From: an uncultured Candidatus Saccharibacteria bacterium
GTDB taxonomy: Bacteria; Patescibacteriota; Minisyncoccia; Phycocordibacterales; UBA2100
NCBI GenBank assembly: GCA_964409155.1
Contig: CAYPCF010000001.1
Location: 4,404 to 34,405, forward strand
Length of the DNA: 30,002 nucleotides
Reading direction: 5' to 3'
The notes below the pieces were generated by a model. That model worked only from the letters and a program-made list of their open reading frames with translations, searched no databases and was not told the origin of the DNA. Every line of letters begins with the position of its first letter. Position 1 is the first letter of the stretch. The translations under genes and the position numbers were made by a program. Positions 568 through 18,339 of this stretch are shown one piece after another.

Positions 568-603
568 TGTAACATTATAAATCTTAGTTAATAAAAATTG
601 CCT

Positions 604-3195
604 ATGCCAAACTTAGATAAACTAACGGAGAAATCAGCAGAAGCTCTACAGGTTGCAATAGAAACCGCTTCCAGATCAGGGCATGCGCAAGCGCTTCCTT
701 TGCACTTGCTCGCAGCACTACTTCTGCAAAAAAACACAGCGGCGAATCTCGCGCTTGAAAAAATCGCGGGAGACTTGTCCAAGATAGAAGAGGCTTTACA
801 AAAGGAGCTTTCTCTTATACCTTCTGCGCAGGGCACACAAACCGCAATGTCAAGAGAGCTGGCTGAAGTGATGCAAAATGCAGAATCTGTCGCCAAATCA
901 ATGGGAGATGAATTCGTAAGCACTGAGCATCTCTTGCTATCCATATTGGAGAACAAAAACAAAGCGCAAGATATCCTGAACTCTCATGGAGTAGACAAGA
1001 AAAGCACACTAAAGTCCATACAAGAAATACGCGGCAACAATAAAGTTGACAGTCGCAATCCTGAAAACAAATATCAAGTCCTTGAAAAATACGGGACTGA
1101 TTTTACTGAATTGGCTAAAAAAGGCGAGCTTGACCCCGTAATAGGCAGAGACGAAGAAATACGACGCGTAATGGAAGTCTTGTCGCGAAGAACAAAAAAC
1201 AACCCGGTTCTCATAGGAGATCCGGGAGTGGGTAAAACCGCCATAGTAGAAGGTTTGGCGCAACGCATAAGCAATGGAGATGTTCCAGACTCACTAAGAC
1301 ACAAGAGAATTATTTCTCTTGAAGTTGGAGCCTTGTTGGCAGGTGCTAAATTCAGAGGAGAGTTTGAAGAACGCCTAAAAGCGGTAATGAAAGAAGTGGA
1401 AGACTCTGCTGGAGAGATTATCCTGTTTATAGATGAATTGCACACCATAGTTGGCGCAGGCGGATCAGAAGGCGCAGTAGATGCCGGAAATATGCTCAAG
1501 CCATTGCTTGCAAGAGGGAAGTTACATATGATAGGCGCTACGACACTTGATGAGTATAGAAAATACATAGAAAAGGACGCGGCTTTAGAAAGACGTTTTC
1601 AAAAAGTATTTATCGGGGAGCCTTCTTTAGAAGATACCATATCCATTCTGCGTGGACTAAAAGAAAAGTATGAGCTCCATCATGGTATCAAAATAACCGA
1701 CCCTGCAATAATTGCCGCAGCAAAACTATCCACCCGATATATTACAGACAGGTTCCTACCTGACAAAGCTATAGACTTACTGGATGAGGCGGCAGCAGGA
1801 CTCAAAATAGAAGCAGAGAGCCAGCCGGCAGAATTGGACAAACTACACCGGCAAATACAACAGTTAGAAATAGAACTGGCAGCCCTTGAAAAAGAAAAAG
1901 ATGAAAAATCTAAATTAAGAAAATCAGAGGTTCTCAAGAAACTCTCATCACTTAAAGAAGAATATAACGCGAAGAAATCTCGTTGGGAGAAAGAGCGCGA
2001 CATGGTCCAAAAGATCCGAGATTTGTCAGAAGAGCTTGAAAAGTTGCAAATAGAAAAAGAACAAGCGCAAAGAGAAGGTGAGTATGAGAAAGCGGCGGAA
2101 ATTCAATATGCAAAAATCCCGGAAACTGAGAAGAAGATTAAAGAACTGCAAGCTGAACTGGACAAGATTCCTCAAAACGAAAGATTTATCAGAGAGGAAG
2201 TTACAGAAGAAGATATAGCCAAGGTTGTATCGCGTTGGACAGGTATCCCTATAACCAAACTCATGGAATCAGAAGCACAAAAACTTGCAAAACTTGAAGA
2301 CGAACTACACAAATATGTAGTAGGACAAGATGAGGCAATAGATGCTGTCGCAAGAGCAATACGACGCGCGCGCGCCGGGCTGAAAGCCGGACAAGGTCCC
2401 ATTGGCTCTTTCTTGTTCCTCGGACCTACCGGAGTAGGTAAAACAGAGTTGGCAAGAGCTTTATCTGACATACTCTTTGATAGCAAAAAAGCCATGATAC
2501 GCCTTGATATGTCAGAGTATATGGAAAAACATTCCGTATCAAAACTCATAGGCGCACCTCCGGGATATGTAGGGCATGGAGAAGGGGGGCAACTAACAGA
2601 ACCTGTAAGACGCAGGCCTTACTCTGTTATCCTTTTGGATGAGATAGAGAAAGCACACCCGGATGTGTTTAATATATTGTTGCAAGTCTTGGAAGATGGA
2701 CGGCTTACAGACTCACAAGGAAGGACGGTAAACTTCTCAAATACCATTATTATCATGACTTCAAACATGGGCTCCACACTCATTGCAGACTGGGACGGCA
2801 AAGACGAAAAGAAATTGAGGCACGATGTAATGGAGGTCGTAAATAAAAACATGCGCCCTGAACTGCTGAACCGTATAGATGAGATAGTCATATTCCACAG
2901 AATAGACAAAGAAACTCTTGAGAAGATATTGGACATACGTCTAAAGGAAACAGAGGAACTGTTAAAAGAAGAGAAAGGTATCACCTTAAAGTTAGATAAA
3001 TCAGCAAGAGAATTTCTACTTAAAGAGGGCTATGACCCCGTATTTGGAGCGCGACCCTTGAAAAGAGCTATACAACGTCACCTATTGGATGAATTAGCTA
3101 TGGAGATTATAGAAGGGAAGATAAAAGAGGGCTCAGAGGTAGATGTTTCCTACAACAAAAAAACGGGAAAGCTTAGCTTTAAGCTTGCTAAATAA
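604..3195 (+). CDS. clpB: ATP-dependent disaggregase ClpB
   Basis: Clp-N domain, two Walker A motifs ([16 protein letters not shown]), FIDELH and [14 protein letters not shown] Walker B regions, coiled-coil middle domain, [16 protein letters not shown] at 604 preferred over TTG at 598. Confidence 0.97.
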
Positions 3196-3338: not shown

Positions 3339-4373
3339 ATGAAGCTATCAGATTTTGACTATTATTTGCCGGAGGAGCTGATTGCACAGAGCCCACTTGA
3401 AAAACGAGATGCGTCAAAACTCTTGGTATTAGATCGCAAGACGGGAAATATTGAACACAAGAATTTCTCAGATATAGGTCAATTTTTTACAGGCAATGAA
3501 GTCTTGGTGCGTAACAATACCCGAGTTTTACCCGCGCGCCTTTTTGGAACAAAAGATAGCGGGGCTGCGATAGAGCTGCTGTTGCTTAAAAAACTAAGCA
3601 TGCAAGACAACTCTGTGATATACGAGGCGCTTGCCAAACCTGCGCGGCGCATGAAGCTCGGATCTTGTATCACATTCAAAAAAGATGTCCTGACAGCAAA
3701 AGTTCTGGAGCGGAGAAAAGAGACTGTGTTAGTGAAATTCTATTTCTCCGGTATCTTTGAGGAAGTTCTGAGTGCGTTAGGGGAGGTGCCATTGCCTAAA
3801 TATATAAAAAGCAAACTGGAAGACGCAGACAGATACCAAACGATATACGCCAAACAAGGAGCTTCTGCAGCCGCTCCTACTGCCGGTCTGCATTTTACTG
3901 AAAATATATTTCAATCACTGCAAGACAAAGGAGTGGAGATACTTGATATCAACTTAGATGTTGGCTTGGGCACTTTTGCCCCGATTAGAACAGAAAAGCT
4001 TAGCGAACACCAAATGCACTCTGAAACATTTAATATAACAAAAACGGTAGCAGACAAGATTAATACAGCGAAAAAAACGGGGAGACCAATAGTTGCACTG
4101 GGCACAACCACCACAAGAGCATTGGAAAGTGCATGGCAAAACGGCAAACTTAACCATGGTGATTTTGAAACAGATATTTTTATAAAACCCGGATATAAGT
4201 TCAATGTCATAGATGAGCTCATCACAAATTTCCATTTGCCCAAATCCACTTTGCTTATGTTAGTCTCGGCTTTTGCGGGGAGAAAAAACATACTACGCGC
4301 CTACAATGAAGCGGTAAAACTAAGATATCGCTTCTTCTCTTTTGGAGATGCCATGTTAATAACTACAAAGTAG
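3339..4373 (+). CDS. queA: S-adenosylmethionine:tRNA ribosyltransferase-isomerase QueA
   Basis: FDYYLPEELIAQ, YQTIYA, AAAPTAGLHFT, VGLGTF, GTTTTRALES, TNFHLPKSTL, YRFFSFGDAMLI. Confidence 0.97.
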   Translation: MKLSDFDYYLPEELIAQSPLEKRDASKLLVLDRKTGNIEHKNFSDIGQFFTGNEVLVRNNTRVLPARLFGTKDSGAAIELLLLKKLSMQDNSVIYEALAKPARRMKLGSCITFKKDVLTAKVLERRKETVLVKFYFSGIFEEVLSALGEVPLPKYIKSKLEDADRYQTIYAKQGASAAAPTAGLHFTENIFQSLQDKGVEILDINLDVGLGTFAPIRTEKLSEHQMHSETFNITKTVADKINTAKKTGRPIVALGTTTTRALESAWQNGKLNHGDFETDIFIKPGYKFNVIDELITNFHLPKSTLLMLVSAFAGRKNILRAYNEAVKLRYRFFSFGDAMLITTK

Positions 4374-4433: not shown

Positions 4434-5186
4434 ATGATAACAACAATTGGTATTATATTATTTTTTGGCATTCTTTTCATGTTAAAGCAGATTAACCAAT
4501 ATCAACGCGGAGTAATGTTTACCATGGGAAGATTTACAGGAGTAAAAAATCCCGGTTGGAGACTTGTCATCCCAATATTACAGTCAATGGTCAAAGTTGA
4601 CATGCGCACCAAGGCGGTTGATGTCCCGCAACAACAAGCCATTACAAAGGACAATATATCTGTTGGTGTAAACGCAGTGATTTATTACAAAGTTAATGAC
4701 GCGTCAAAGGCCATTTTAAATGTTGAGGATTTCTACTACGCCATCAGCCAACTTGCGCAAACCACCATGCGAAATGTAGTGGGGGAGGTGGAGCTTGATG
4801 AGCTACTTGCCGGAAGAGAAAAGATCAGTGAGAGGATCAGAGAAATCGTTGACAAGGCCTCAGATGAATGGGGTCTCAAGGTAGAGAATGTGGAGCTCAA
4901 AGATGTAGTCTTACCTGAAGACATGGAAAGAACAATTGCAAAACAAGCGGAAGCCGAAAGAGAAAAACGCGCCGTAATCATCAAAGCGGAAGGTGAAAAG
5001 ATAGCCGCAAAAAATATGGCAGAAGCTGCCGAAATGCTCAACGCCGCGCCGGGGGCGCTACATTTGCGCACTTTGCAATCAATAAATGATTTATCATCAG
5101 ACCAGAGCAACACCGTCATATTCGCAGTCCCAATAGAAGTGCTAAGAGCAATAGAAAGCGTTAAAGATTCACTTTCTAAAAAGTAA
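4434..5186 (+). CDS. SPFH/band 7 (stomatin/slipin) family membrane protein
   Basis: N-terminal TM helix, YQRGVMFTMGR, ITKDNISVGVNAVIY, AQTTMRNVVG, WGLKVENVELKD, AKQAEAEREKRA, ALHLRTLQ. Confidence 0.93.
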   Translation: MITTIGIILFFGILFMLKQINQYQRGVMFTMGRFTGVKNPGWRLVIPILQSMVKVDMRTKAVDVPQQQAITKDNISVGVNAVIYYKVNDASKAILNVEDFYYAISQLAQTTMRNVVGEVELDELLAGREKISERIREIVDKASDEWGLKVENVELKDVVLPEDMERTIAKQAEAEREKRAVIIKAEGEKIAAKNMAEAAEMLNAAPGALHLRTLQSINDLSSDQSNTVIFAVPIEVLRAIESVKDSLSKK

Positions 5187-5190
5187 AACC

Positions 5191-5688
5191 ATGCAACAAA
5201 CACAAAATGTCTTAAGAATAGTCAAGCCCGAGCCTGACTCTGATGATTGGTGGAAGCTTAAGGACCGTATTTGGACTTTTCTGGATCGGCACGACAAGAT
5301 GATTCTTGGATATACAAACAATCTCGGTGAGCCGGTTCAAAGCCTGATGCTTTATACGGTAAATGATGATATGGATTTATTCATTGGGACACTCAAACGC
5401 TTCCCAAAATATGAAGCCTTGGTGCAAAATCCACCATTGTCAGTTGTCGTGCAAGGAGAAGGTGAACGGGAAAAACTTCAAGCTCTTACAATAAAAGCTG
5501 TAGTGCTTGAGGAAATATCCGAACAGGACAGCTTAGCCGAGCTAAAAGATTGGTTTGTAAGCAAAAATTCATGTAAATACTTCATCAAAGACCAAGAAGA
5601 TTTCGTAATGTTTAAAATAAAACCATTAAGCCTGCGCCTGATAGAAGGGGTAAATGATAGCTTGGTAAGATATGATATAAATTTATAG
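5191..5688 (+). CDS. Pyridoxamine 5'-phosphate oxidase-like (FMN split-barrel) protein
   Basis: LFIGTLKRFPKYEALVQNPPLSVVV resembles the family T...K..N...NP.VS motif; C-terminal FKIKP strand; 4 nt after the SPFH stop. Confidence 0.6.
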   Translation: MQQTQNVLRIVKPEPDSDDWWKLKDRIWTFLDRHDKMILGYTNNLGEPVQSLMLYTVNDDMDLFIGTLKRFPKYEALVQNPPLSVVVQGEGEREKLQALTIKAVVLEEISEQDSLAELKDWFVSKNSCKYFIKDQEDFVMFKIKPLSLRLIEGVNDSLVRYDINL

Positions 5689-5698
5689 ACTTATCCAT

Positions 5699-8600
5699 AT
5701 GGAGAACGGACTTGCGGAAAAACCATCCTTTAAATTGGGAGGATTGCGCGAAATTGTGAAAAAAGTGTTAGGAGTCCCGCGTATCTTAGGCTTGAGTGTT
5801 TTACTTGCTATTCCCGGGGTAAATCCTGCTTCAGCAGACAGTGAGGTGGAGCTCAAATCAACCCAAGTGCAACCTGAAGAACCCAGCAAACTTAACAATC
5901 TTAAATATGATTATGCTATCAGTAAATTTACCGCTTTGCCCACCATTGAGCGCATGGCGAAAAATCCATTGCAAAGAAAATTGCTGTATTACATACCAAA
6001 AATAGCATTAAATGATAATCCGTATAATCTGTCCACTTCCCTTGAAGTTGGCGCTGATAATCCACATATTTTACTAGGGATCAATATAAAAACCATAGAT
6101 GAGGAACGTGCGCTTGAAGATTATATAATATCAAATATTGAGAGTCCTAACATAAAGAAGTTGATTAACTTTATCTATATGTCTCAAGAGATTGATGCTG
6201 TTCAGAGCAATTTTATTCATTTAGATGATCAAGGGCAAGAAGAAACTGACCCTCTTACTTTATTAGAGAAAACTATAATAAAAAGTGAAGATAAAATAAA
6301 AACTTTTCTTCATGAGAACTTAGATGAAAATGATTTTAAATTACCTCGATCAATACTTTATGCATATCTGGAAAGGCACCCGGGGCAAATTAAAGAAAAT
6401 CGTGAAAAAATTATAAAGTTTATCGAGAATGATAACAGTGGTGCCGCGCTTCATTTTTTGTTCTATATTATGAAGCAGCCGGATCTTAGTATCAAACTCA
6501 GCTTGTTCTCCTCACTTAATGAATTCTCTCGCTTATTAATGCAAAAAGCGAAAGACAACAAAGAATTTTTCTGGTTATACATGTCTACCGTGAGAACAAA
6601 TTTCTCAATGGATGAAAAAGATAGGGATAATATAGAAAGACTTATAACAAATAGAGATTTTTATAATTCATTGGGAAATGATTTTGATTGGTCGGATTAT
6701 ATAAAAGGTAATAACCGCGAGCAGAAAGGGGTTAATATAATGTTCGCTTTTGGATATTCAAATATTATGAGCGAAGGTTCTGCAATTCCGGTTGGCACAA
6801 CTTTAGATAGGCAAATTAACAAATTGGTCGGGGACAATTGGATATTTATGAAAAATGACCCCGGTTTTAAGATGTTACTCAACAATCCAAAATTTCCATC
6901 GAAATTACCCATGGAAACACAATTCAAATTAGCCAAAATAAGTGAACAAAAAATCTTACAAGGCACGAAAGAGCATTTGTATCATAAAATTTACAGTTCT
7001 TTGCTTTCTCACTCTAATTTTATTAGTACTTATTTTTTAAATGAAATTACTCCCAAAAAACAAGTTGACTTGTTGAGAAAAATAGATTCCACACAATTGT
7101 GGCATATAATGTTTAGACTAGACATGCGCTCATTACCCATCGTCAAATACTCTCTGGGTAAGAATCAATTATTAGAACACTTAAAACCTTCAGATTTTTA
7201 CAGCGGTTTGAAATCAGAAGATGGCGCGGCAAGATTTCTTATGCGCTTTATTCTAAGAGCTACAGAGGTACAACTCCCTAATGAGAACCATTTATATAAT
7301 ATGGTGCGTAATTTCCTTAAAGAGGAGGAAGGGGAAGATGCTAAAATGGTTGACAAAGCTTTGATACATCTAAAAACGCAGCTATATTTTCATAATTCAA
7401 AAGGTGGGTGGGAAAACAGAGAAAAAATAATAAAATTGATATCTCATGAACATCGTCTTAGACTACTTAAATTATCCGCCACAGATAGACCTCTAACACA
7501 TGCAAGCTATATTGAAAGAAATTACAACAATCTTCCGCAAGAAGATATAGATGCAGCCATAAATGGTCTTAAAACATTTGTATTGAATGCATTATCAGGT
7601 AACGCCGGAGACTACCAATACAATAAGGTGATGCGTGTTATAAACCATCTACACCCATCCAAACTAAGTAAATATCGTGGAGAGATTATCAGCTTATTGA
7701 GCCCAAAACAACGCTACGCTTTGAGTGTATACGGCGCGGAGGAATTATTTACATCCACTTCAACTTATGTAAGTTATTTATTCCCGGCGATAATGAAAGA
7801 TATACAAAAATATGGATTACAAAGATATATACAATTAGTTGATAAAAATAATCAGCTACTCGGGAGGTTTCTTACCGTTGCCGCACGCTACGGTAAACTA
7901 AGTCTGTTGTTTAAGGATTTCTCATTTAATAATATGAGTGATATTGTCAAAGACATGTTAAAAAACATAAATGCGGATACTGCACTTGCAACGGTGGAAA
8001 TCTTTAAATTGCTTGCAGATAACCAAAGCGATACAGAAAAGCTACTTTCCGATCTGTATGATTTAGACGCACAATTACAAAACAATGGTAACATGGTAGG
8101 GGAGAGGCTTCTGGAGAGTGTTGTTTCTCTAATTTATAACTCTTCAATCAAAAAGAATGCGTCCACCTATAACAAAAAACTTAGAGCATGGCTTCAGAAG
8201 TGTTCAGAACGAGAACATATTTTTATACCTAACACGATATCTTTTGACAAATTATATTTGCAAGAAGGGGACAAAATGGTACATAGACAATTGTGGTTAT
8301 TTTTTGAAGGAGGTGACAAAGACGGGATAGCATCAAGATGGAGTGCCGAGACTCAACTTCGAAAAGCCGGTTTCAAATTTAAGACTTTAAAAGATGATAC
8401 TCGTTTGGCCACCAAATCAACAGGGAATAAAGTAGTTGAGATATATCTGAGTAATATTATTGATGTTCATAATATAGAACATGCATCAGATTCTGTTTCG
8501 CCAACTGTCATGAATTTAATACATGGCTCAGATAAAAAGTTCCAGGTTCTAAGTTATAGAGGGCATAGTACATACATACCAAATCTTTCAGACTTTTTAA

Positions 8601-8962
8601 GTAAGTCATTAAATAAAGCACATCCATTATCTATAATAAACCTTGGGAGTTGTGGTGGGGTATCAAGTATTCGCCGAGTTGATAAATCCATATCTCAAGA
8701 TGTATCCGCATGGATAGGTACGCAAGCTACCGGAACAGCGGAGATAAATGATTTGATTTTATCTAATATGGCCACATTTATATCTCATATAGAACCGGGA
8801 CAAGAATTAAATTTTAAAATTCTAAAACAAAAAATAGATGAGCATGTCCCTCGAGGACTTAGAAATAAATGGAGAGGGTATAAATTCCCACATGAAAACA
8901 TACCGGCTATATTAACAATGCATTTCAACAGAATTAAAACCAACAGGAGTAACAAACCTTAA
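5699..8962 (+). CDS. Large hypothetical protein (1087 aa) with probable signal peptide and C-terminal putative cysteine-peptidase-like domain
   Basis: Uninterrupted AT-rich ORF; hydrophobic segment ILGLSVLLAIPGVNPASA; motifs LSYRGHS (H956) and INLGSCGG (C985). Confidence 0.8.
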   Translation: MENGLAEKPSFKLGGLREIVKKVLGVPRILGLSVLLAIPGVNPASADSEVELKSTQVQPEEPSKLNNLKYDYAISKFTALPTIERMAKNPLQRKLLYYIPKIALNDNPYNLSTSLEVGADNPHILLGINIKTIDEERALEDYIISNIESPNIKKLINFIYMSQEIDAVQSNFIHLDDQGQEETDPLTLLEKTIIKSEDKIKTFLHENLDENDFKLPRSILYAYLERHPGQIKENREKIIKFIENDNSGAALHFLFYIMKQPDLSIKLSLFSSLNEFSRLLMQKAKDNKEFFWLYMSTVRTNFSMDEKDRDNIERLITNRDFYNSLGNDFDWSDYIKGNNREQKGVNIMFAFGYSNIMSEGSAIPVGTTLDRQINKLVGDNWIFMKNDPGFKMLLNNPKFPSKLPMETQFKLAKISEQKILQGTKEHLYHKIYSSLLSHSNFISTYFLNEITPKKQVDLLRKIDSTQLWHIMFRLDMRSLPIVKYSLGKNQLLEHLKPSDFYSGLKSEDGAARFLMRFILRATEVQLPNENHLYNMVRNFLKEEEGEDAKMVDKALIHLKTQLYFHNSKGGWENREKIIKLISHEHRLRLLKLSATDRPLTHASYIERNYNNLPQEDIDAAINGLKTFVLNALSGNAGDYQYNKVMRVINHLHPSKLSKYRGEIISLLSPKQRYALSVYGAEELFTSTSTYVSYLFPAIMKDIQKYGLQRYIQLVDKNNQLLGRFLTVAARYGKLSLLFKDFSFNNMSDIVKDMLKNINADTALATVEIFKLLADNQSDTEKLLSDLYDLDAQLQNNGNMVGERLLESVVSLIYNSSIKKNASTYNKKLRAWLQKCSEREHIFIPNTISFDKLYLQEGDKMVHRQLWLFFEGGDKDGIASRWSAETQLRKAGFKFKTLKDDTRLATKSTGNKVVEIYLSNIIDVHNIEHASDSVSPTVMNLIHGSDKKFQVLSYRGHSTYIPNLSDFLSKSLNKAHPLSIINLGSCGGVSSIRRVDKSISQDVSAWIGTQATGTAEINDLILSNMATFISHIEPGQELNFKILKQKIDEHVPRGLRNKWRGYKFPHENIPAILTMHFNRIKTNRSNKP

Positions 8963-9059
8963 ATTAGAGATGCCGATATCACATAACTTATTTATAGACT
9001 TCCTAAATTGGGCAGGCAGGATAAGGAAAGGATAGGATATTTATATATAAAATATTATA

Positions 9060-9087
9060 GAGTCGCACAATATACCTTTTGCGACTC
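9060..9087. other. dif-like tyrosine-recombinase site (11-6-11 inverted arms)
   Basis: GAGTCGCACAA-TATACC-TTTTGCGACTC; arms are 10/11 inverted complements, extended by TATA on both sides; lies at the + to - gene-orientation switch. Confidence 0.5.
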
Positions 9088-9147
9088 TATATACTATATA
9101 TCGTATACAAATAATACTTGTTGGCATAACAACTACCCATATCTGCC

Positions 9148-9975
9148 TCAGCGTAATTTTATTAGCGCTTTAAATTCTTCACTTAACATCATTGAAGCCC
9201 ACACGGTTAAGATTACCTTGTTTTTACCTGTCCGCTCATGTATCTGATCAATACTGCAACCGTTAATACGCATGTATGCATGTTCTAAAACTGTCATATA
9301 TGCATCTTTTCCATTACCCGAAACTCTTTTGGGGTCAAACATAAAACCTGTTATAACACGAGTAGCTGTATATGGACAATATTTAAAATCCTTATTAAAT
9401 TGACTGGAGATATATCTAGATAAGCCCATAACTCTTATGTCTTTCTTTAAAGCTAATTCAAGTATCACAGCTACCTTAGATGCGTCTCTTATGTTCTTCC
9501 AAAAAGCGCCCAAGCGTCTCAGCTTGTGAATTTTTGCTGCAGGCCCAGGGTCATGCGCTTCTAATTTATCCACAAACTGAGTAAGCATTGATCGTATTGG
9601 CCGGTAATCTTTGGTATCAATACTCAGATGGTCCGTAATCGCACTGAAACCCAAGCGTTCAATTGTCATAGCTAAAATTACTCTTTTATCCGTGTGTTGT
9701 TTAATAGAATAGCTGCGTGGTATAAAACAACATTCCCGCTCAGTTAATTCTAAAGGCAAATCAATACCATATCTTTGCAAGTAAAAATCACGTATTTGCG
9801 CATCTGTCATATTTTTAAAAGCAATCCATCTTCCTTGTTGAGTATCAAAATATGCGCGTTCCGGATTGGCTACAGGAATAATACTTCTATCTTCTAAATC
9901 TGCAAAAAATGCAGGTTTTACTCTCGGGTCAATGGCTTTTAGAAAAGCTCTTCTTATCGCTTCCATATCATCCAT
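9148..9975 (-). CDS. Hypothetical protein with possible helix-turn-helix segments
   Basis: 275-aa ORF from ATG 9975 (track starts at TTG 9981). C-terminal MRINGCSIDQIHERTGKNKVILTVW is HTH-like. No family recognised. Confidence 0.65.
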   Translation of the reverse strand: MDDMEAIRRAFLKAIDPRVKPAFFADLEDRSIIPVANPERAYFDTQQGRWIAFKNMTDAQIRDFYLQRYGIDLPLELTERECCFIPRSYSIKQHTDKRVILAMTIERLGFSAITDHLSIDTKDYRPIRSMLTQFVDKLEAHDPGPAAKIHKLRRLGAFWKNIRDASKVAVILELALKKDIRVMGLSRYISSQFNKDFKYCPYTATRVITGFMFDPKRVSGNGKDAYMTVLEHAYMRINGCSIDQIHERTGKNKVILTVWASMMLSEEFKALIKLR

Positions 9976-10051
9976 ACGCAATATATAACAGAGAATGCCG
10001 CAAAAAACAAGAAGGCATTAACGACTGCCCCACTTTTTATATAACACAAAT

Positions 10052-10071
10052 TTTAGCGTCGCACAATATAT
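10052..10071 (+). repeat. Direct copy of the dif-like left arm plus spacer
   Basis: TTTAGCGTCGCACAATATAT; 17/19 identical to 9056-9074 and 19/20 identical to 11618-11637. Confidence 0.8.
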
Positions 10072-10096: not shown

Positions 10097-11368
10097 CTAT
10101 TTCAAAAAATCTATAGGGTTCATGTATGCTTTAAGTGGAGCCACAGGCACGCGTGCTTTTGCGCAATAATGCGTCTTTCTATATTGACCTAAGGGCACGA
10201 CACGCACCGCACTGGCATCATAAACGGTGAAATGTAAATGCGGACCTGTAGTATATCCGGTGTTGCCTGAGTATGCGATAACTTGCCCTGTCCGTACACG
10301 TTGTCCTGCCGATACTTTAATCTTAGACAGATGCGCATAAAGAGTGGCAAGGCCGTTGCCATGTTTTATTAAAACCCATTTACCGTATGAGTAACAACCC
10401 GGATATGCATCTGTGTTGCCGGTTTCCACAACTGAGCCCGCCAAAGCCGCTTTCACAGGAGTCCCTATACCCGCGCCAAGATCTATACCGTTGTGCCCCT
10501 TGCCGTTATATGCTCCGGATTTTGCAAAACGCGTATTGCCAAAATATTGAGTAATCCATACTTTATCCAAAGGCCAATGCAAGACTTTTGATCCGACTTT
10601 TGGAATCAAGTTTGGATTAAAAATATATTTAAGCTTGGCTTCATACTCATGTAATTGCTCCTCAAACTCACGTTTAGCGCGTTTTTTTGCCGCCAAAATT
10701 TTCTGGTAATTTGACTCTTTGTTTTTGGTAAGCCGGATTAAATGCTGTTTTTCACGGCTTGCAATGTCCACAGACTGTTTTTCGGTAGAAAGCTTGGCTT
10801 TTGCTTTCAAAAGCTCAGCTTTGATTTTCTGCAAGTTTTCGGCAGATTGCTCTAACTCTGTTTTCTTTATTTTTAATTCTGCGTTATTTTGTCTGATAAG
10901 CTCCTGGATTTTATTGATATTTTCAAGCTCATTAAGCATGGAAGCAAAATTATTTGAAAGAAGAATCTCTGCCAAGCTTCTATTTTCGTACTGGTTAACC
11001 GTCCTTATAGTCTTGGCAAGAAGCTTTTTGTTTTCTAAGATTTTCTGCTCTTTGTTTTTAACCTGCTTTTTAAGTCGTTGTATTTCTTGCTCTTGTTCTT
11101 TTATCTTATTTTCGGTTAATGAGATTTGTTTTTGTAATTTTTTCCTGGATAATTCTATACTATACAAAGCGTTCTTTAGCGTCTTTTTTTTGCGCGACAC
11201 AGACTGTAACTCTGATTCATATTTACGGATTTCAGCTTCTATCTTCTCAAGCTCTGATTTGGAATCATGTATTTTTGCTTTTAGTTCCTGTACTTTATTT
11301 GCCATCACCGAAGAGGTCATAATAAGAAACAGAACAAAGACAAACAATACCAATTTTCTCTTGCTCAT
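10097..11368 (-). CDS. Coiled-coil M23 family metallopeptidase (EnvC/murein hydrolase activator-like)
   Basis: Signal peptide, long coiled coil, M23 motifs HNGID (HxxxD), TLYAHLS and TTGPHLHF (HxH). Confidence 0.9.
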   Translation of the reverse strand: MSKRKLVLFVFVLFLIMTSSVMANKVQELKAKIHDSKSELEKIEAEIRKYESELQSVSRKKKTLKNALYSIELSRKKLQKQISLTENKIKEQEQEIQRLKKQVKNKEQKILENKKLLAKTIRTVNQYENRSLAEILLSNNFASMLNELENINKIQELIRQNNAELKIKKTELEQSAENLQKIKAELLKAKAKLSTEKQSVDIASREKQHLIRLTKNKESNYQKILAAKKRAKREFEEQLHEYEAKLKYIFNPNLIPKVGSKVLHWPLDKVWITQYFGNTRFAKSGAYNGKGHNGIDLGAGIGTPVKAALAGSVVETGNTDAYPGCYSYGKWVLIKHGNGLATLYAHLSKIKVSAGQRVRTGQVIAYSGNTGYTTGPHLHFTVYDASAVRVVPLGQYRKTHYCAKARVPVAPLKAYMNPIDFLK

Positions 11369-11404: not shown

Positions 11405-12763
11405 CTATGCGCGCAAGTTAGCTAAAGCATCAATCGCTTTGTGTAGCCTCATGCAGGCTTCATCTTGACCAAGAGCGGCAAGTAAGACAAACGGGTTCGG
11501 TGAACGCTTCTGCCCTGATAACGCATACCTAAGTGGCCAGAGCACATCACCTTTTCCTTCTGTCTCAGCATACGGCATGATCATCTCTTCTACCCCATCT
11601 ACTGTAAGCGTCGTTAATTTAGAGTCGCACAATATATTTATAAGTTTTTGTAAATGTTTTATCGCGGTTTCTTTGTCGCTTTTTTTCCAGATAAGCTCAG
11701 ACGGATCGTAATCTAATTCATCCGCCGACTTCAAAATCCAGTCAAACTCCCCTTGCTTTTCCAACTCTGAAATATCCGCATATACATAAATTCTTTCTTT
11801 TAAGTCACATGCAAGCGCTTCTTTTACCTTATCATCAGATAATCGCTCTTTAAGAGATGGCCCGGCAAATCCTAACAAAGCAGCGTAGAATTCGTCACTT
11901 TCCAAGTTTCGCAGATATTCTCTGTTAATCCATCTCAATTTTTCTTCGTTAAAAACAGCGCCGGCTTTTTGGATGCCGGCCAAATCAAAACTCTCTACCA
12001 GCTCATCTATGGACCATAATTCTTTCTCATCATTGTCTTTACTGCGCCATCCAAGCATCGCCAAGAAATTAACCATCGCCTCCGGCAGATACCCCATCTT
12101 CTTATATTCAAGCACAGAAACCGCGCCATGTCTTTTGGACAACTTACTTTTGTCAGGAGCGAGAATAAATGGTATATGAGCATATTGAGGGCTCTCAAAC
12201 CCGAGGGCTTGTTGTAGTAAAATTTGTCTTGGTGTATTGGAAATACCATCTTCCCCGCGAAGTATATGGGTTATCCCCATATCATAATCATCCACAACAA
12301 CAGCCAGATGATATAACGGGTCGTCTACAGAGCGGGCAATAACAAAATCACCAAGGTCACTTGTGTCCACCTTGATTTCCCCTCTTATCAAATCATTGAA
12401 TGATATTTCTTTGTTCGGGTTCTTGAAGCGTATCACTCTTGCGGTTTTGTCTTTGTTCTCTTCGGCCTCGTATGCAAGACCGCTATCAATCAATTCTAAA
12501 AGGTGTTTTTTATATATATCACTGCGCTCACTCTGACGCTGCAAGTCCCCTTCCCAGTTAATGCCCAACCACTTCAAACCGGCTAAAATATCTTCTTCGT
12601 ATTCCTTTTTACTGCGTTCTTTGTCAGTGTCTTCCATGCGCAGGACCATTTTCCCATTGTAGTGTTTTGCGAAAAGATAATTAAAAAGCGCAGTTCGCGC
12701 AGACCCTACGTGCAAAAGACCGGTTGGGGACGGTGGGAATCTTGTTATGACAGTATTACTCAT
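11405..12763 (-). CDS. gltX: Glutamate--tRNA ligase
   Basis: RFPPSPTGLLHVG (HIGH), LRMEDTDKERS, VVDDYDMGITHILRGED, KLSKR (KMSKS), VLWPLRYALSG. ATG at 12763 preferred. Confidence 0.97.
   Translation of the reverse strand: MSNTVITRFPPSPTGLLHVGSARTALFNYLFAKHYNGKMVLRMEDTDKERSKKEYEEDILAGLKWLGINWEGDLQRQSERSDIYKKHLLELIDSGLAYEAEENKDKTARVIRFKNPNKEISFNDLIRGEIKVDTSDLGDFVIARSVDDPLYHLAVVVDDYDMGITHILRGEDGISNTPRQILLQQALGFESPQYAHIPFILAPDKSKLSKRHGAVSVLEYKKMGYLPEAMVNFLAMLGWRSKDNDEKELWSIDELVESFDLAGIQKAGAVFNEEKLRWINREYLRNLESDEFYAALLGFAGPSLKERLSDDKVKEALACDLKERIYVYADISELEKQGEFDWILKSADELDYDPSELIWKKSDKETAIKHLQKLINILCDSKLTTLTVDGVEEMIMPYAETEGKGDVLWPLRYALSGQKRSPNPFVLLAALGQDEACMRLHKAIDALANLRA
11618..11637 (+). repeat. 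Third direct copy of the dif-like arm, inside gltX
   Basis: TTTAGAGTCGCACAATATAT; 11620-11636 is a 17-nt exact match to 9058-9074. Confidence 0.75.
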
Positions 12764-16944: not shown

Positions 16945-18339
16945 TTATTTCTTTTTATTTGTATTTTCAGACAGATTCTCTCTGTAAAATTCTTCTGCTA
17001 CTAATCTCCCATTTACTTTTCTTAATATTCCCCCAAAAAATGACTCTTCAATCTTTGTTATGCTCAAATTTGTTACTGCGGATACCTGAGCTATTGCATG
17101 CTCTAGCCATTTTCTAGGGACAACATTAAATAATCTCTGCATTATTAACACTTTCTTTTTTAAGTCATAAAGAAGATGATTGGAAAAGCCGCTTTCGTTT
17201 TTATTGCCCTCGTGTAGAATCTGTATCTCTACATTTACGGGGGTGGATTGATAGATAATCTTAAATCTTAGTTTAATATCTTTATATTTATACGCGCTTT
17301 TTTTGTTATCTCTGTCAAATTTTATATCAAGATTTGGAAATTGATTTGATATATTATCTATTTCTTTTTGACTCAATAAATCACCCTTTATTTCAAGTCT
17401 AAATATTTTTCCGTTGTCATATTCGTCTATTCCATAAGCTTCTTTTTGAGAAGTAAAATATTTGATGATATGTGACACAAAGATAGGTATATTATTGTGA
17501 GCTAATTCTATTCTTATACCTACTGCATCTTTTAAAGCCTGGTTTAAATTCGCCTCTCTGTTTAGAATAAGTTTCATTGCGGCGCTATACATACTCTTAA
17601 GTCTGGAGCAATACGAGGCTTTTATATCTAATTCCGGAACAGAAGATTCCTTGCATGACATTACGACGTCTTCAGAAGTCGATATCAGCAATGGTTCTAT
17701 ATCGTCCAGCTTTCCAAATATGGCCTCATTCAGAAAATGAAAGGCTTTCTCTCTTAGTTCTATTCGTCCATCATTTAACATAAACATCACGACGGTAGTC
17801 TTCACAAAGGCACAGAGAGCGACATGTTTCAACAAAGCGTCTTGCGATATTTTCCTCTTTCTACCCTGAGTATTTATTTTTTGCAGTTCTTTATATATAA
17901 TCTTCAAATCATTTAGTTCATGTGCATGTTGTATATGCTCTAGCCAATCTGTTCTATCCCTATCAATTCCAGTAGGCGCTGCTACCAGCGCTCTCGGGAT
18001 ATCCAAAACTTCTCGCAAAAAATCCATCGCCGCTTCAGCTGATTGTTTTATTTTCAATAAATATTCATCATCGGTCATTTCTTCAGATCTCGGGAATTGA
18101 GCATAAAGATATTTAACCCAAGCAGGAATTTCTGAAACTTTTGTTTTCTCTTCTTCAGCAGCTGGGATAGAAGGCAAATCTATAACAGTAAAACCTGTTC
18201 TTGTATCTATCCCGGAGTTCCCCAAAATTCTTCCTGCATCATGAGCATCAGATCCCTTTATTGTATGTCGTAATGAGACAAAATCTGCTCCTATATGCCC
18301 ACTCCTTCCTCTCGTCTCTTTTGGTGGTAACTCTGCCAT
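16945..18339 (-). CDS. Hypothetical protein with a divergent RelA/SpoT synthetase-like (small alarmone synthetase-like) C-terminal domain
   Basis: Ordered motifs SRLKSMYSAAMKL, LKDAVGIRI, YKYKDIK, VEIQI, NHLLYDLKK match the RSH synthetase Syn1-Syn5 order. N-terminal ~235 aa unrecognised. Confidence 0.65.
   Translation of the reverse strand: MAELPPKETRGRSGHIGADFVSLRHTIKGSDAHDAGRILGNSGIDTRTGFTVIDLPSIPAAEEEKTKVSEIPAWVKYLYAQFPRSEEMTDDEYLLKIKQSAEAAMDFLREVLDIPRALVAAPTGIDRDRTDWLEHIQHAHELNDLKIIYKELQKINTQGRKRKISQDALLKHVALCAFVKTTVVMFMLNDGRIELREKAFHFLNEAIFGKLDDIEPLLISTSEDVVMSCKESSVPELDIKASYCSRLKSMYSAAMKLILNREANLNQALKDAVGIRIELAHNNIPIFVSHIIKYFTSQKEAYGIDEYDNGKIFRLEIKGDLLSQKEIDNISNQFPNLDIKFDRDNKKSAYKYKDIKLRFKIIYQSTPVNVEIQILHEGNKNESGFSNHLLYDLKKKVLIMQRLFNVVPRKWLEHAIAQVSAVTNLSITKIEESFFGGILRKVNGRLVAEEFYRENLSENTNKKK

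Follow-up and report, generated by a model that had tools for sequence, protein, structure and literature searches.

The window analysed here, a stretch of 30,002 nucleotides from contig CAYPCF010000001.1 of an uncultured Candidatus Saccharibacteria bacterium, carries an open and intact reading frame (positions 5699–8962, forward strand) whose product of 1087 amino acids (aa), P0001, is best explained as a Sec-exported multidomain protein with a C-terminal thiol-hydrolase module, most likely a cysteine peptidase of the clan CD type (caspase/CHAT/separase-like). We give this explanation a probability of roughly 0.6. The module founds a new, unannotated family, which is covered by no Pfam, NCBIfam, PADLOC or Protein Data Bank (PDB) entry, and there is strong evidence from residue conservation that its His and Cys are functional. 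The parts of the gene are as follows.

5699–8962, forward strand: whole gene for P0001, 1087 aa plus stop codon
5699–5836, forward strand: probable Sec signal peptide, residues 1–46, with the sole hydrophobic segment of the protein
5837–7618, forward strand: lineage-specific N-terminal region, residues 47–640, delimited by exhaustive phmmer
7619–8233, forward strand: helical subdomain, residues 641–845, from the hidden Markov model (HMM) envelope 641–1079 and AlphaFold2
8234–8938, forward strand: alpha/beta domain of catalytic type, residues 846–1080, caspase/CHAT-like in the AlphaFold2 model
8315–8323, forward strand: D873-K-D875 of the DxDG motif, in the loop just past the first core strand, from conservation and the model
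8558–8569, forward strand: R954-G-H956-S957 motif, with H956 (8564–8566) as putative general base
8642–8659, forward strand: L982-G-S-C985-G-G motif, with C985 (8651–8653) as putative nucleophile
8879–8899, forward strand: Y1061-x-x-P1064-x-x-N1067, conserved C-terminal motif, from the alignment counts

A Family Defined by an Invariant His/Cys Pair

With phmmer, 1.84 billion cluster representatives were searched exhaustively and 69 proteins were recovered at E<1e-3, with matches confined to the C-terminal part of P0001 except for P0002, a member of the query's own cluster. Residues 47–640 are matched only inside that cluster and have no Pfam or NCBIfam match; the other phmmer matches start at about residue 547–660. 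Iterative HMM searching delineated a single conserved module, residues 641–1079 of P0001 (about 440 residues), which lies at the C-terminus of proteins of about 460 to 1480 residues. The N-terminal parts of these proteins bear no relation to one another, ranging from about 20 to more than 1000 residues and highly variable in sequence. The source names of the family members, where present, are all 'hypothetical protein'. Pfam gave no match for P0001 or the 70 aligned members, even at E<=10, and none was found in NCBIfam for P0001 or the family members scanned, in PADLOC for the four family members run, or among PDB chain sequences for P0001 or the family profile. A stand-alone catalytic domain was considered and dismissed: P0031, 256 aa long, is the C-terminal end of a protein of 1129 aa, and short representatives may be fragments.

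Conservation was counted in a 70-sequence alignment of the module (A2) with a mean column identity of 25%. H956, C985 and Y1061 are invariant (70/70), and because both members of the His/Cys pair are unchanged in 70 sequences of such low mean identity, their conservation is far beyond chance. The original prediction had singled out this pair in the strings LSYRGHS (from residue 951, H956 at codon 8564) and IINLGSCGG (from residue 979, C985 at codon 8651), 29 residues apart, and had named conservation in homologues as a test; the strings, positions and spacing are as described, and the test came out in its favour. Around the two residues, the RGHS, GSCGG and DxDG motifs are each more than 90% conserved: R954 and G955 in 69/70 and S957 in 68/70 sequences (Thr in the other two), G983 and G986 in 68/70 and S984 in 66/70, and D873 and D875 in 66/70 and 67/70. 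Further towards the C-terminus, G1012 (69/70), N1017 (68/70), P1064 (68/68) and N1067 (69/70) are nearly as constant, and N649, R660 and S686 are kept in every sequence that has the position. The family signature can be written DxDG ... RGHS ... LGSCGG ... Y-x-x-P-x-x-N. P0001 has two cysteines in all, at residues 835 and 985.

Predicted Fold and Its Nearest Neighbours

A single-sequence AlphaFold2 model of residues 820–1087 was unusable (predicted local distance difference test score, pLDDT, 37), and the model of residues 638–1087 built with alignment A2 reached a pLDDT of 93.3 and a predicted template modelling score (pTM) of 0.91. Model residues 1–205 are helical, with helices at positions 2–202 and a pLDDT mostly above 90, and the alpha/beta domain occupies model residues from about 209 to 445. 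The description of some 800 residues of helical sequence in the original prediction therefore stands for residues 638–845, the model covering no part of 47–637, and its placing of the C-terminal domain at about 860–1080 agrees well with the 846–1080 of the model. The order of elements in the alpha/beta domain is strand 222–233, helix, short strand, beta-hairpin (265–285) and helices, followed by strand 313–317, helix, strand 342–345, helix, strand 367–371, helix and strand 399–401. H956 (model residue 319) lies two residues past strand 313–317, and C985 (model residue 348) lies three residues past strand 342–345 and ahead of helix 350–360. The His thus precedes the Cys, each just past a hydrophobic strand, on consecutive strands with one helix between them, which is the order found in clan CD. 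D873 and D875 come just past the first strand, 222–233, and, judging from the secondary-structure string, all the near-invariant residues of the domain appear to sit at the C-termini of strands or just past them, the usual active-site edge of such sheets. By analogy with C80, C25 and metacaspases, D873 and D875 are candidates for acids that orient the His or line the S1 pocket.

The model is an alpha/beta/alpha sandwich with clan CD members as its nearest structural neighbours, and seven different clan CD families are represented among the top structural matches. The best of these are defence-associated CHAT proteins, namely SAVED-CHAT, Craspase and Roc-COR-CHAT, and in SAVED-CHAT (8tl0) the published dyad H375/C422 falls within the aligned chain range 304–495. 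A shape search of the ESM Atlas returned the family's own clusters first, at template modelling (TM) scores of 0.74–0.79, then two Myxococcota clusters and then five clusters with Pfam CHAT. Among Swiss-Prot AlphaFold models the top match was the Roc-COR-CHAT protease, and the AFDB clusters yielded family members (one named 'CHAT domain-containing') together with weak peptidase C80 and CHAT matches. On the other hand, a Foldseek search of the PDB brought up Arf-type GTPases alone (E about 5e-3, TM 0.2–0.5), and re-examination of these matches changed nothing. A 2-1-3-4-5 parallel sheet is common to small GTPases and caspase-like domains, so an overlap of this kind in structural matches is expected. 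A GTPase assignment was rejected, the Walker A (GxxxxGK[ST]) and NKxD motifs both being absent from residues 841–1087; a Walker A-like pattern occurs in the C-terminal domain of 2 of 71 family representatives. The fold evidence favours clan CD by a modest margin, and the case for clan CD is made by the fold in combination with the position of the invariant His and then Cys.

Comparison with Known Clan CD Families and Weighing of the Alternatives

CHAT is the closest of the known families in structure, and the sequence comparisons with it were uniformly short of significance. Pfam CHAT (PF12770) has no match in the whole genome at E<=1. CHAT profiles were built from four CHAT genes of the same phylum and from 120 database CHAT proteins (a 105-sequence profile). 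With the four-sequence profile, hhalign placed H956 on the CHAT His and C985 on the CHAT Cys at a probability of 12.6% and an E-value of 0.0023, which is not significant, and with the 105-sequence profile the Cys strand alone was aligned (E 0.13). Searches with hmmsearch between CHAT and the family, in both directions, were likewise not significant, 0.028 being the lowest E that a locally built CHAT HMM gave over the 71 sequences of the family. The family differs from CHAT proteins (SAVED-CHAT 8tl0, TPR-CHAT/Csx29 7zoq, Roc-COR-CHAT) in other respects as well: the His and Cys are 29 residues apart in P0001 and 47 in SAVED-CHAT, His is followed by Ser instead of Gly, a beta-hairpin interrupts the stretch from the first helix to the His strand, and P0001 is predicted to be exported and is without sensor or defence context, whereas CHAT proteases are cytoplasmic. 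Separase (MEROPS C50) is eukaryotic, much larger and regulated by securin, with no sequence similarity to P0001. Secreted bacterial proteases of clan CD, that is, clostripain-type C11 (6nag, 9cip), gingipain C25 and the CPD C80, are among the closest known systems; the Pfam families C80 (CPD), C11, C25, C13 and C14 gave no match to the P0001 module at E<=10 and are not among the 25 Pfam families listed as matching most members.

Several of these points count against a clan CD peptidase. The family is not detectable by sequence as CHAT or as any other Pfam clan CD family. Canonical clan CD members have Gly after the catalytic His, and here the residue is Ser (68/70) or Thr (2/70), as the original prediction had already remarked for P0001, with the Gly preceding the His instead (69/70). 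The spacing of only 29 residues and the beta-hairpin inserted ahead of the His strand also depart from the canonical arrangement, the Cys sits in a G-x-C-x-G strand-turn-helix that resembles a nucleophile elbow, and generic 2-1-3-4-5 alpha/beta proteins score nearly as high as CHAT in the structural comparisons. It is because of these differences that a non-peptidase thiol hydrolase or transferase (an esterase, amidase or acyltransferase) stays alive as an explanation, with a flavodoxin-like scaffold, a nucleophile-elbow Cys in G-S-C-G-G between strand and helix, and a likeness to clan CD that would be convergent or very remote; we regard it as unlikely, while giving it real weight. The known enzymes with a nucleophile-elbow Cys (class I amidotransferases, DJ-1/PfpI, C26) have the nucleophile ahead of the His. 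In P0001, however, the His comes 29 residues ahead of the Cys on consecutive strands, in clan CD order, and the nucleophile-elbow families are absent from the top structural matches, where the seven clan CD families are present. The interpretation as a cysteine protease put forward in the original prediction is partly supported, by the invariant dyad and by a fold whose nearest relatives are CHAT, separase and caspase, and it falls short in the missing His-Gly, in the modest margin of the fold match and in the lack of a significant sequence or profile link.

The remaining explanations concern what such a module would do. A constant C-terminal module joined to highly variable N-terminal regions, an Asp-His-Cys order like that of C80 and a weak structural match to a peptidase C80 protein in AFDB (E 5.8e-3) would suit a CPD-like autoprocessing module that cuts its own polypeptide after export and frees the variable N-terminal cargo, as C80 does in MARTX and the large clostridial toxins. 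If true, the family would be a hitherto overlooked means of delivering polymorphic secreted effectors, used by ultra-small episymbionts and Bacteroidota. We consider it improbable, given that Pfam C80 has no match, that CHAT and separase outscore every C80 structure and that the N-terminal regions are without recognisable effector domains. The domain might instead be non-catalytic, a GTPase-like or pseudo-protease module that serves for binding, perhaps of a metal, with the His and Cys in a structural role or acting as metal ligands together with D873 and D875. This reading draws on the Arf-type GTPases at the top of the Foldseek ranking and on the placement of one His, one Cys and two Asp on the same edge of the sheet, where they could ligate a metal. 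The missing Walker A and NKxD motifs, the low TM scores of the GTPase matches and their E-values of about 5e-3 speak against it, the conserved residues being His, Cys and Asp in place of a P-loop, and the dyad is kept in all 70 sequences whereas pseudo-enzymes typically lose theirs; it is very unlikely. An intracellular CHAT-type defence protease of the kind found in CRISPR type III, CBASS and TIR-caspase systems would account for the top structural matches, and is scarcely credible in view of the signal-peptide-like N-terminus, the lack of a sensor domain, the absence of a PADLOC match for P0001 or its neighbours, and the housekeeping character of those neighbours (ClpB, QueA, an SPFH protein, an M23 peptidase and GltX).

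Probable Export and Proposed Mechanism

The N-terminus of P0001 has, by inspection, the n-h-c layout of a signal peptide: the n-region is long and basic, ILGLSVLLAIPGV forms the h-region, and ASA|D closes the c-region. The hydrophobic segment, at residues ~23–41 and followed by P-A-S-A|D, is the only one of membrane or signal length in the protein; the original prediction had likewise read a signal-like N-terminus ending in ASA|D. Equivalent N-terminal hydrophobic segments are present in P0002, P0003, P0004, P0006–P0008 and P0011, and a signal-like start occurs in about half of the family representatives, including all small-genome relatives with a complete N-terminus and also Bacteroidota-type members. 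Export is likely because a single signal-like segment with an AXA site stands at the N-terminus and recurs in relatives; it would be of the Sec type, with cleavage predicted at ASA|D.

For the clan-CD-type peptidase favoured here, the following mechanism may be proposed. After export and removal of the signal peptide, H956 would activate C985, each being predicted to lie at the C-terminal end of one of two adjacent parallel strands, and C985 would attack the peptide bond by way of a thioacyl intermediate. The conserved acids of the loop past the first core strand, D873 and D875, may orient the His, form an S1 pocket favouring a basic P1 residue, or both. Substrates might be selected or gated by the helical subdomain together with the 600 lineage-specific residues of the N-terminal part, in the manner of the helical regions of separase and TPR-CHAT. 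If the module is an active protease, it would represent a new clan-CD-like family recognisable by its RGHS and GSCGG motifs, its helical subdomain and its exported location. The family comprises 69 or more clusters by sequence, a good many with Bacteroidota labels, and is found in a few ultra-small-genome bacteria. With a high-confidence model and two point mutants that suggest themselves, the idea lends itself to direct testing.

The original prediction had also suggested a host-directed effector of an episymbiont, and nothing examined supports this. Many relatives are labelled Bacteroidota, the family's clusters in the ESM Atlas carry mostly Bacteroidota labels, and the gene context of a Bacteroidota-type homologue is unremarkable; in Bacteroidota a signal peptide leads to the periplasm or envelope. 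In the small genomes, its fixed position beside an M23 peptidoglycan peptidase gene and near murG/ftsW lends the idea no support either. A literature search on secreted caspase-like proteases in Patescibacteria found nothing relevant. For a genome of ~0.5 Mb, spending 3.3 kb on an accessory gene whose product would be an exported enzyme is costly, which makes P0001 a fair candidate for a role in contacts with the cell envelope or a partner organism.

Composition and Distribution

The reading frame has a GC content of 34.7% (30.8% at third codon positions, GC3), compared with 40.4% for the window and 41–45% for the flanking housekeeping genes (clpB, queA, gltX and a murG-type gene), in keeping with the AT-richness noted in the original prediction. 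The assembly that holds the window measures 0.49 Mb in 49 contigs and is 83% complete, and the listed genomes of the same family, order and phylum are all of 0.5–1.6 Mb. The gene is present in 5 of 101 genomes of the organism's family (3 of 11 genera) and in 2 of 301 sampled genomes of the phylum, and is a rare accessory in its own lineage. A low GC content, a scattered occurrence and an N-terminus that evolves fast characterise it as an accessory gene that changes rapidly. A word-indexed search supplied one close relative, P0002 (1089 aa, 56% identity), and P0003 and P0005 are further full-length homologues at 31–39% identity; these homologues lie at the syntenic site in relatives. A related-locus search with P0001 as the lone query gave no match. 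DNA nearly word-for-word identical to the window occurs in metagenome runs of three studies, both organism-labelled runs being hydrothermal-vent metagenomes, and no RNA run is among the listed runs that carry it. In a six-frame search, two family-level homologues (G387:C6:33927-35297 and G024:C6:3424-4683) each showed one in-match stop (TGA and TAA, respectively), which might reflect gene decay in some lineages or a gene boundary.

Genomic Setting

The neighbourhood of the gene in the window comprises the following features.

598–3195: ClpB
3339–4373: QueA
4434–5186: SPFH/Band-7 protein
5191–5688, forward strand: 165-aa protein, directly after the SPFH/Band-7 gene
9056–9091, no strand assigned: hairpin with a perfect 12-bp stem and a 12-nt loop (inverted repeat I9), 94 nt past the stop codon of the large gene
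9148–9981, reverse strand: 277-aa orphan, convergent with the large gene (GC 37.2%, GC3 28.8%)
10097–11368: M23 peptidoglycan endopeptidase, followed by GltX

The order ClpB-QueA-Band7-small reading frame-large reading frame-M23-GltX-...-MurG is kept in three relatives, and in the small genomes the gene occupies a conserved site beside the M23 peptidase and near murG/ftsW. The large gene fills the same Band-7/M23 slot in relatives (loci L004:2415-5615 and L013:6001-8991), and in two relatives it is inverted with respect to the window. An invertible element was considered in view of this opposite orientation and rejected, as no inverted repeats flank the reading frame in the window. The large reading frame begins 10 nt past the stop of the 165-aa frame, whose position is kept in relatives (166 and 170 aa) and which has no Pfam match and a weak NCBIfam match to the PPOX class (E 3.9e-4); its product is a possible NfeD-like partner for the SPFH protein. 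It was also examined as a conserved partner of the large gene and set aside, being without similarity to the 181-aa protein upstream of a Bacteroidota-type homologue.

On the downstream side, the hairpin at 9056–9091 lies in an A/T-rich setting between the ends of the two convergent genes (8962 and 9148). Its RNA fold has a free energy of -20.6 kcal/mol (z = -4.45), and 0 of 200 shuffles fold as well. A simple terminator scan missed it, its loop being longer than 8 nt and its T-tract weak. A bidirectional terminator is at least as plausible for this hairpin as a recombination site. Additionally, a 22-nt sequence containing GTCGCACAATATA is found in three direct copies, 86–100% identical, at 9053–9074, 10049–10070 and 11615–11636; the 277-aa orphan gene lies between the first two, which are spaced 996 bp apart, and gltX contains the third. 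The P0002 genome has an orphan of 347 aa in the corresponding place, and all that the 277-aa orphan shares with it is an N-terminal motif of ~59 residues (31% identity, E 3e-8), which has a weak NCBIfam match to LIC13344_fam (E 0.0013). The 277-aa orphan is absent from both relatives with the inverted arrangement.

Elsewhere in the window, a second gene of markedly low GC at 16945–18339 on the reverse strand (GC 35.1%, GC3 28.8%) resembles the large reading frame in composition. Small T4SS_pilin genes (PF18895) are located just upstream of clpB in the P0002 genome (L012:1-857) and in the P0006 genome (L013:14337-14990).

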